Of a stretch of 64,000 nucleotides of DNA, positions 23,953-24,344 are shown in pieces. Source of the DNA: Escherichia phage WPEC5; sequence record PV654397.1; one strand, 5' to 3'. Positions within the stretch are counted from its first letter, which is position 1. Each line of letters opens with the position of its first letter. The notes under the pieces are model-generated. The model worked only from the letters and a program-made list of their open reading frames with translations, was not told where the DNA came from and searched no databases. A program made the position numbers and the translations under genes.

Positions 23953-24309
23953 ATCACCAACTTTAATTAAAAAAAATGGATGGTGACGCTTTTAAACGCC
24001 GCTGTTAATTCAGCTTTATAACCACCCGTTTTAACTTGCCTTTCGGCTACCTTGACGTGGGGCGTACAGGCTACTAAAAGCAACTACTGTAAACATATTT
24101 CCACGCCTTACCCTTTTAAATAAAAATCCATCCGGTTTTCCAGTTTGGTGAAGGATAGTCACCTCTAGTTTAAACCTGCTAGTCAAGTAATAATTGCCTA
24201 TCGTCCAATTATCAAACCCGTCTAGGTTAACATTCACCACTTCCTAGAGTACCAGAGATCTTGTTCTGGATTGCATCGACGTAACTTACACCATATACGT
24301 CTGATTGTG
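23953..24309 (-). ncRNA. candidate structured non-coding RNA or long structured leader
   Basis: about 350 nt between strong promoter 24316..24344 and the next start codon; locally G+C-richer than surroundings; several hairpins including a GAAA tetraloop; ends with hairpin-like element plus T8 run; only a weak nested ORF (24031..24240). Confidence 0.3.
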
Positions 24310-24315
24310 GAATTC

Positions 24316-24340
24316 ATTATATCAGTACTGAACTATTTAG

Positions 24341-24344
<4 letters not shown>
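24316..24344 (-). promoter_or_regulatory. sigma70-type promoter
   Basis: minus strand TTGACT-N17-TATAAT; near-identical to promoter at 24738..24765. Confidence 0.65.

Follow-up and report, generated by a model that had tools for sequence, protein, structure and literature searches.

That the tRNA clusters of phages carry small stable RNAs was recognized fifty years ago, and those of the T4 and T5 tRNA regions have been known since the 1970s. To our knowledge, nobody can say what any of these RNAs does, and each one is specific to one phage group. The T4 species 1 and species 2 RNAs (rnaC and rnaD; 139 and 119 nt) are small noncoding RNAs encoded in the midst of the tRNA genes and on the same strand as these, and they arise by maturation of tRNA precursors. 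The start of rnaD lies 1 nt after tRNA-Arg, and a tRNA-like T arm forms the end of rnaC. In T5, RNAI, RNAIII, RNAIV, RNA1, RNA2, RNA2H, RNA3, and RNAX are annotated as "stable RNA with unknown functions" and are interleaved with tRNAs and homing endonuclease genes in the tRNA region; RNA2H (172 nt) has its own promoter upstream and tRNAs downstream. GOLLD and ROOL, elaborate pseudoknotted RNAs from other bacterial phyla, are likewise associated with tRNA genes in phages and prophages. Their structures have been described (PMC12286853), and a large catalogue holds a further 10,006 unnamed candidate phage RNAs (PMC10690425).

Here we analyze a 64,000-nt stretch of DNA from Escherichia phage WPEC5 (sequence record PV654397.1), hereafter the window. 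A preliminary description had drawn attention to positions 23953 to 24344, proposing either one discrete small RNA of about 350 nt or a long regulatory leader for the gene and tRNA cluster downstream. We find that this stretch is two small noncoding RNA genes on the minus strand, which we call module A and module B (Table 1). Module A belongs to a well-supported, apparently uncatalogued RNA family that is common to at least six phage lineages. A counterpart of the T4-type stable RNAs had been thought plausible at this site, and the genomic setting is indeed the same: module A is noncoding, tRNA-adjacent, and on the tRNA strand, which is the context of a small stable RNA of a phage tRNA cluster. 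The T4 RNAs are shorter, however, and module A differs from them in having two pseudoknots and no tRNA-like part. Module A resembles the T5 RNAs in its place among tRNAs and RNA2H in having a promoter upstream and tRNAs downstream, and the T5-like Novosibvirus carries module A itself. GOLLD and ROOL have elaborate pseudoknots in common with it but are three to four times larger, have no model match here, and differ from module A in that the latter shows no sign of multimeric assembly. Riboswitches and attenuators share with it pseudoknotted folds and invariant unpaired nucleotides, and module A allows two exclusive pairings beside a weak terminator hairpin; unlike riboswitches and attenuators, it has no conserved downstream gene, matches no riboswitch or leader of Rfam, and lies in many copies between tRNAs without a terminator.

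The genomic locus and its promoter

In BLAST searches, the 501 nt around the stretch share 99.6% identity with Escherichia phage EC.P1 and 97-99% with 121Q, PBECO4, and phages related to these; judged by sequence similarity, the source phage of the window is an Asteriusvirus-type jumbo coliphage. The minus strand is the strand of all genes around the stretch, including four tRNA genes (Thr, Asn, Met, and Ser). The sigma-70-type promoter that opens the stretch was described from the outset as near-perfect, and it does match 11 of the 12 consensus positions in addition to its TG extension. It is a near-duplicate of the promoter at 24765..24738, with the whole spacer common to both. Across this A+T-rich region, promoter-like sites occur at chance level (24 found versus 23.2 expected); sites with at least 11 of 12 consensus matches number four, every one on the minus (coding) strand. 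A promoter scan of the window found no strong promoter between the T8 run and the ATG at 23952. The elevated G+C content that had been noted is also borne out (0.405-0.41 at 24000-24299 versus about 0.30-0.35 in the flanks), and both the GCC-GAAA-GGC hairpin and the T8 run are located as described.

The idea of one discrete 350-nt RNA, on the other hand, has to be abandoned, since the stretch holds two separately conserved RNAs. In RaK2, L020, and L019, a full promoter lies between modules A and B, from which we conclude that the two are separate genes. This promoter is missing in the window, where the U-run of module A leads straight into module B.

Natural deletions of the locus also exist. 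Asteriusvirus phage G17 retains the promoter and the first 37 nt of module A, followed by a homolog of the downstream ORF; its deletion amounts to about 310 nt, and modules A and B are both gone. In phages phAPEC6 and Sharanji, the match is limited to the same first 52 nt. Both RNAs are thus accessory and dispensable. Despite the loss of the RNA downstream, the promoter is 100% conserved in these three phages, where it is predicted to serve the downstream ORF.

Table 1. Sequence features of the two RNA modules and their surroundings in the window
Feature	Position	Strand	Description
Sigma-70-type promoter	24316..24344	-	TTGACT 24344-24339, 17-nt spacer, TG-extended TATAAT 24321-24316
Module A	24125..24315	-	191-nt structured RNA gene; covariance model R1, 242 bits; one copy in the window
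Pseudoknot 1, 5' strand CCAC	24307..24310	-	pairs with GUGG 24240-24237 in the Pc loop
Hairpin Pa	24275..24305	-	conserved loop motif GGYGU; 7/10 pairs changed on both sides
Hairpin Pb, CCAGA/UCUGG	24252..24269	-	100% paired; 3/5 pairs changed on both sides
Hairpin Pc	24221..24248	-	loop holds the 3' strand of pseudoknot 1; 100% paired; 7/8 pairs changed on both sides
Junction CGGG-N-UU	24220-24214	-	conserved; precedes Pd
Hairpin Pd	24189..24213	-	invariant loop GACGAUA; 5/8 pairs changed on both sides
Pseudoknot 2, H-type	24165..24188	-	both helices 100% paired in 16 sequences
Hairpin Pf, GGUGA/UCACC	24147..24163	-	7-nt loop ending in invariant CCU; 100% paired
Module A 3' end	24118..24146	-	weak hairpin CCA-AA-CUGG-AAAA-CCGG-A-UGG, invariant GAUGG, then AUUUUUAUUU
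69-aa ORF	24240-24031	-	mechanical ORF; spans the A-B junction, which most family members lack
Module B	23969..24107	-	second structured RNA; only in Asteriusvirus and Alcyoneusvirus (jumbo phages)
Module B 5' part	24038..24107	-	B1 and B2; conserved in Asteriusvirus and Alcyoneusvirus
B1	24107-24054	-	stem GGCGUGG/CCACGUC around a long hairpin
B2, GCC-GAAA-GGC hairpin	24047-24038	-	
Module B 3' part (T-module)	23969..24027	-	three-way junction GGGUGGU-[GCUG..CAGC]-[GGCGUU..AGCGUC]-ACCAUCC, then U8
T8 run	23976-23969	-	16 nt before the ATG at 23952
Downstream ORF	23952-23575	-	followed by tRNA-Ser/Met/Asn genes

Distribution and genomic context of module A

Module A was found in Asteriusvirus, Alcyoneusvirus, Bragavirus, a Morganella strabovirus, Novosibvirus, a Stephanstirmvirinae phage, and Aeromonas T4-like phages. 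In BLAST comparisons of this unit of about 190 nt, identity reaches 95-96% in the RaK2-type phages of Klebsiella (Alcyoneusvirus). It is 84-93% in Bragavirus (Pm5461, PM2, and SdyM_006) and Morganella phage vB_Mm5, all of them T4-like phages of 160 kb, and 84.5% in the T5-like phages of Proteus (Novosibvirus). The core of the unit can also be recognized in the Stephanstirmvirinae phage KP13-16 of Klebsiella and in some 20 T4-like phages of Aeromonas from the genera Ishigurovirus and Ceceduovirus. A covariance model (R1), built from nine E-clade sequences with the structure read off the alignment, assigned 212-239 bits to every E-clade member and 64-92 bits to the KP and Aeromonas members. Jumbo, T4-like, T5-like, and Stephanstirmvirinae phages all keep this fold; their hosts are Escherichia, Klebsiella, Proteus, Morganella, Shigella, and Aeromonas. 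Three further members (L019, L020, and L024) came from a metagenome scan, whereas IMG/VR returned known isolates only and a genome collection chance hits only. Neither 5,426 complete E. coli genomes nor 72,556 plasmids contained a copy, and a host or plasmid origin was rejected on this ground.

Similarity stops exactly at the borders of the unit, and the flanks of different carriers are unrelated. Every module A locus lies within a phage tRNA cluster and on the tRNA strand. Its 5' end is always within a few nucleotides of a promoter start or a tRNA 3' end, and in four independent lineages it starts 0-3 nt after the CCA of the upstream tRNA; the jumbo-phage copies have no upstream tRNA. In Pm5461, PM2, and SdyM_006, module A exactly fills the gap between tRNA-Gly and tRNA-Asp. 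It directly follows tRNA-Leu both in Proteus phage 1, where it ends 13 nt before tRNA-Ser, and in KP13-16, where a longer 3' extension precedes tRNA-Ser, and in the Aeromonas phages its start lies 0-3 nt downstream of tRNA-Pro. Several phages thus carry module A flush between two tRNA genes without a promoter or terminator of its own. The downstream neighbor varies by lineage (tRNA-Asp, tRNA-Ser, tRNA-Thr, tRNA-Glu, or module B). Module A is an autonomous cassette, and its carriers share no flanking protein or tRNA across clades.

The near-identity of module A between phage families (90-96%) may reflect recent transfer, not strong constraint.

Fold and covariation of module A

RNAalifold gave a poor structure on the raw MAFFT alignment, and the minimum-energy folds of single sequences disagreed with the covariation-supported fold. 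We therefore resorted to manual segmentation of the alignment, guided by the structure; the curated alignment (A5) holds 16 distinct sequences from three clades (E, KP, and Aeromonas), and its register was retained for pair counting by writing gaps as N in the rows given to the aligner. The fold comprises six hairpins and two pseudoknots, with 53 pairs in nine helices. Standard pairs fill 95.0% of the 805 cells, compared with 26-40% once the 3' partners are slid by 1-3 columns. Both sides have changed in 29 of the 53 pairs, and not one of 500 shuffles scored as high, although these cell counts overstate the number of independent compensatory events because there are only three clades and the alignment was made with the structure in view. 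The covariation analysis across related phages that the preliminary description had proposed argues for a conserved structure. Helices Pb, Pc, Pe, and Pf and both pseudoknots are paired in 100% of cases.

Individual helices illustrate this pattern. Pseudoknot 1 is CCAC/GUGG, CCUC/GAGG, or GCAC/GUGC depending on the clade; it is always paired, and two of its four pairs have changed on both sides. The stem sequence of Pa is entirely different in each of the three clades, and the existence of three wholly different stem sequences for Pa and for Pc is hard to explain without the fold. Pseudoknot 2 consists of ACUUG 24188-24184 paired with CAGGU 24178-24174 (helix 1) and CUAG 24182-24179 paired with CUAG 24168-24165 (helix 2, Pe), with two pairs changed on both sides in each helix and an A-rich crossing loop. 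The Pf stem occurs as GGUGA/UCACC, GGUAA/UUACC, and GGUUA/UAACC, and 3' of it follow ACCAAAC, a weak terminal hairpin, and the invariant GAUGG. Conserved G-U pairs are specific to the minus strand (columns 116-145 are GU in 11 sequences, and columns 148-158 are UG in 15 of 16). Such pairs are possible on one strand only, which indicates that the functional molecule is an RNA read in the direction of the tRNAs.

The preliminary description had pointed to several stable hairpins. Their stability is not exceptional: the folding energy of single sequences gives z = -1.33 for 24315-24125, no significant gain over shuffles, and z = -1.79 for 24112-23955. The evidence for structure is the covariation and not the hairpins seen by eye. 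Two further candidate features were rejected. A tertiary pairing of CGGG with the Pf loop is possible, but it shows no covariation and has one counterexample; an internal promoter at the invariant TTGAC of module A has no -10 box at usable spacing.

Comparison with known RNA families

We scanned both modules with the 4227 models of Rfam 15, which include riboswitches, ribozymes, RNase P, tmRNA, 6S, SRP, Y RNA, GOLLD, ROOL, and T-box. Nothing was found in module A or module B at E<=1; at E<=10, the window gave three spurious hits of 12-14 bits, and none fell inside module A, its five divergent members included. ARAGORN and RF00005 called the flanking tRNAs but never module A, so a tRNA-like cloverleaf was not detected in it. 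With filters off, the best score of model R1 in the T4 tRNA region was 10.5 bits, a noise-level hit inside a CDS, and its best score against the eight T5 stable RNAs was 10.8 bits, level with that hit in a T4 protein gene and with the conserved motifs absent. For all the likeness of setting, module A was rejected as a homolog of T4 rnaC/rnaD or of the T5 stable RNAs, to which it has no detectable similarity in sequence or structure. Likenesses to RNase P, tmRNA, an HDV-like or hatchet ribozyme, T-box, SRP, 6S, a CsrB-like sponge, and tRNA halves, seen by eye in the motifs AGGAAGU, GACGGGUUUG, GAGGUGA, and GGA, were dropped, as they have the backing of no model and some clades lack the motifs. 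We found no published description of module A, which may be among the 10,006 unnamed candidates of the phage RNA catalogue (PMC10690425).

Coding potential

The stretch contains mechanical ORFs of 69, 38, and 27 aa, and in some GenBank records (ELP-22, 121Q, and others) hypothetical proteins are annotated across it. The preliminary description saw no convincing ORF here, and the evidence agrees. We looked for a frame conserved in relatives, which the preliminary description had named as a finding that would refute it, and in the tested stretch of module A no frame is kept open in the homologs, stops or frameshifts breaking every one; in the module A part of the 69-aa ORF, stops and indels interrupt the frame in RaK2, L019, Mm5, Pm5461, SdyM_006, and both distant clades. 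Variable sites in the stretch of this ORF do not cluster at any one codon position. PHROGs has no match for any of the three ORFs, nor has Pfam one for the 69-aa ORF. With its frame broken in relatives and its course across an A-B junction that most family members lack, a small protein such as the annotated ones is hardly a credible product of the stretch, and a protein-coding gene was rejected. The GenBank annotations that call hypothetical proteins across the module A RNA should be corrected.

Proposed production and role of the module A RNA

We have next to no doubt that module A is a real gene for a structured RNA and that its family is conserved. Our main reading goes further, holding that modules A and B are independent RNA genes and that module A is released by tRNA-processing enzymes, stable, and trans-acting; as a whole, we give it a probability of roughly 0.6, and the trans-acting role is much less certain than the status of an RNA gene. 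Module A encodes a compact, self-folding RNA of 191 nt, whose family travels as a self-contained cassette in the tRNA arrays of many virulent phages that infect Enterobacterales and Aeromonas. For transcript ends, processing enzymes, stability, and molecular function, we infer the following. Module A would form part of a multi-tRNA precursor, 0-3 nt after CCA, in Bragavirus, Novosibvirus, KP13-16, and the phages of Aeromonas. Endonucleolytic cleavage and trimming would then act at the 3' end of the upstream tRNA, where the CCA-AAUU junction is A/U-rich, and the 3' side of module A would be freed by RNase P, which cuts at the 5' end of the next tRNA. In jumbo phages, a dedicated promoter and a weak hairpin with a U-run would replace the tRNA-processing enzymes. 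There, the window included, the strong sigma-70 promoter would start the transcript a few bases before the 5' strand of pseudoknot 1; in the window, the -10 box ends 5 nt ahead of CCAC, and a start at the usual 7-8 nt from the box would truncate this strand.

The hairpin at 24146-24118 (-5.8 kcal/mol) is the least conserved helix of the family, paired in 78% of cases, and with its U-run is probably a leaky terminator. In the window it would end some transcripts, the remainder running on into module B, whose branched 3' unit and U8 would form the next stop. In the window, a primary transcript of 350 nt may be made, and transcription may also run through into the downstream ORF, given that module B has no promoter of its own here and that the module A terminator is so weak.

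Once freed, module A would persist as a stable trans-acting RNA that does not regulate a gene in cis, and it would most probably bind or decoy a protein or RNA, of host or phage, that belongs to the translation or tRNA machinery. Its compact double pseudoknot, its invariant unpaired motifs, and the lack of a conserved cis target suggest such a stable trans-acting binder. The company of phage tRNAs, the accessory status, and the spread by exchange favor, as the most plausible role, one in tRNA biology, in translation, or against host defense. The family offers a covariation-supported structure, natural deletion controls (G17, phAPEC6, and Sharanji), and culturable model phages. More speculatively, module A may represent an undescribed class of double-pseudoknotted RNA that is exchanged with tRNA genes and active as a ribozyme, a tRNA binder, or a defense decoy, an idea we entertain as tentative. 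Such an activity, if real, would be the first function for stable RNAs of the kind found in the T4 and T5 tRNA regions.

The last of these activities can be framed on its own: module A would be an antidefense decoy that travels with phage tRNAs and is directed against a host system targeting tRNA or translation. Its accessory and patchy occurrence, with deletion in G17, phAPEC6, and Sharanji, would fit, as would its exchange as a cassette among unrelated virulent phages, the absence of a host or plasmid homolog, and its embedding in tRNA arrays. Phage tRNAs have been published as countering tRNA-targeting defenses; according to a preprint, for example, T5 tRNA-Tyr counters a retron (bioRxiv 10.1101/2023.03.15.532788). 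However, all of this is pure context: in our comparisons module A resembled neither a tRNA nor any known target, and no defense system is implicated. We regard the decoy as unlikely.

A leader acting in cis, the second possibility raised in the preliminary description, appears distinctly unlikely. Here the whole 350 nt would control read-through into the ORF at 23952-23575 and tRNA-Ser/Met/Asn, and the switch would lie in UAG 24167-24165, which has two exclusive partners: CUA 24182-24180, a part of the Pe CUAG, or CUG 24143-24141. Both pairings are kept in 16 of 16 sequences. One position of UAG/CUG occurs as three pair types, and the AP1/CC2 lineage shows concerted changes at all three positions of the alternative pairings. 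CUG also belongs to the terminal hairpin, so folding in jumbo phages could be coupled to termination; when CUG is free, the CUGG/CCGG hairpin and the U-run can form. The arrangement in the window suits a leader as well, with module B lacking a promoter and no strong promoter from T8 to the ATG, and in G17 the same promoter drives the ORF directly. On the other hand, the support for the alternative pairing is a single double-sided event, and the terminator hairpin it would govern is the helix conserved least and has no terminator role where tRNAs come next. Module A is also kept between two tRNA genes where neither the U-run nor the downstream ORF is present, its downstream neighbor differs in every lineage, a promoter splits A from B in RaK2-like phages, and no riboswitch or leader of Rfam matches. 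For module A, the claim of a regulatory leader, attenuator, or riboswitch is therefore hard to uphold.

It is very unlikely, too, that module A is a catalytic or tRNA-recognizing RNA acting on tRNA precursors or tRNAs, either as a self-cleaving element that sets the 3' end of the upstream tRNA or as a tRNA elbow binder. A start so close to the tRNA CCA in four independent lineages, a 5' end that is built into a pseudoknot, and the combination of a double pseudoknot with invariant unpaired motifs, typical of ribozymes and aptamers, would fit such an RNA. Yet the first pseudoknot strand begins 3-5 nt beyond the CCA of the upstream tRNA instead of right at the junction, in the jumbo phages there is no upstream tRNA to act on, no self-cleaving ribozyme, RNase P, or T-box model of Rfam matches, and host enzymes already account for how the ends would be made.

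Module B and its branched 3' unit

The consensus structure of module B has 39 pairs, five of them compensatory, derived from six sequences. Its 3' part, the T-module, folds with z = -3.64, and its closing stem GGGUGGU/ACCAUCC abuts A-U8. The T-module also occurs on its own, after tRNA-Ser in RaK2 and after tRNA-Arg in L020, and in these RaK2-like phages it stands directly before module A as well. The recurrent copies carry compensatory changes in the closing stem (GGAUAGU/ACUAUCC and GGAUGAU/AUUAUCC). Because it recurs alone at other sites with such changes, the T-module appears to behave as a shared, terminator-like 3'-end module. A simple terminator scan did not call it, on account of its three-way junction. 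Complete termination there is unlikely, since an ORF usually starts 15-25 nt after the T-module and the DNA of the T-module also reads as a weak promoter. The unit of promoter, RNA, and branched terminator-like element, repeated for tRNAs and noncoding RNAs alike, hints at how RNA genes are organized and shuffled in jumbo phages.

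Deletion of the structured RNA genes and recurrence of their 3' unit

Phage G17 has naturally lost about 310 nt (L032 2501-2570): all of module B, the second structured RNA, and most of module A, the 191-nt RNA gene found in phage tRNA clusters, are gone, which places the promoter straight onto the downstream ORF. The match in phAPEC6, Sharanji, ECO103 4-12-1, and EC22.5-2 is likewise truncated at 52 nt; because it is the same truncated match, these phages probably carry the same deletion.

The branched 3' part of module B, termed the T-module, recurs in other loci (see table below). 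In RaK2-like phages, copies of it are repeated behind tRNAs and non-coding RNAs, with compensatory changes among them. The motif TTGACA/TTAACA-17-YAYYAT can also be read in T-module DNA, and 15-25 nt past the T-module there is usually the start of an ORF. The T-module may combine a terminator and a promoter in one unit. Module B opens with 54 nt that have approximately 81% identity to positions 1201-1254 of Kuravirus vB-EcoP-XT18 (L033). In these 76-kb Kuravirus phages, the matching sequence lies within an ORF-free, structured-looking stretch of approximately 650 nt (L033 850-1500) that has no tRNA genes nearby.

Further units accompany module A elsewhere. The metagenome locus L019 has a third unit, and in phages of this type one promoter (TTGACT...GTACTGTATAAT) seems to be repeated, with a separate copy for every tRNA or non-coding RNA. 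Among the additional hairpins located 3' of module A, those of KP13-16 and the metagenome locus L024 include a T-arm-like GAGUUCGAAUCUC.

Coordinates of RNA units and flanking genes
Feature	Location	Strand	Remarks
Third ORF-free unit, ~170 nt	L019 (metagenome, jumbo-phage-like) ~560-770	minus	promoter-driven; between module A and tRNA-Arg
T-module copies	window 24027-23969; L003 4098-4149; L020 1753-1814 and 345-425		three-way junction and U-run
Additional hairpins, 60-90 nt	L008/L009 2580-2668 (Aeromonas); L007 2617-2680 (KP13-16)		between module A and next tRNA
Three tandem paralogous 54-aa ORFs (MTHEEWM...)	window 24776-24940, 24937-25101, 25098-25262	minus	just upstream of RNA region
HNH/NUMOD3-like ORF	window 22523-23065	minus	
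PD-(D/E)XK endonuclease	window 25372-25776	minus	
segD-like endonuclease	SdyM_006 (L005) 1835-2440		adjoins tRNA-Gly and module A

Flanking genes and unusual tRNAs

The tRNA and RNA cassettes are bordered by nuclease genes. In the window, the PD-(D/E)XK endonuclease was identified with an E value of 7.6e-22, and the HNH/NUMOD3-like ORF scores below the Pfam threshold. Given these flanking genes, shuffling of the tRNA/RNA arrays by endonucleases would fit the observed arrangement; T4 segB and the T5 heg genes are parallels for such shuffling. Stop and start codons overlap between neighboring tandem 54-aa ORFs, and the one copy examined (24776-24940) had no Pfam match.

A weak match to the Rfam tRNA model (32.6 bits versus a threshold of 29) at window 25287-25365, minus strand, where ARAGORN called no tRNA, may represent a degenerate or unusual tRNA. 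The tRNA-Asn(GTT) gene (23130-23214, minus strand) is 85 nt long, with an extra arm of 12 nt. Long tRNA-Asn genes (83-84 nt) are likewise annotated in Mm5 and SdyM_006; the ELP-22 version is 72 nt.
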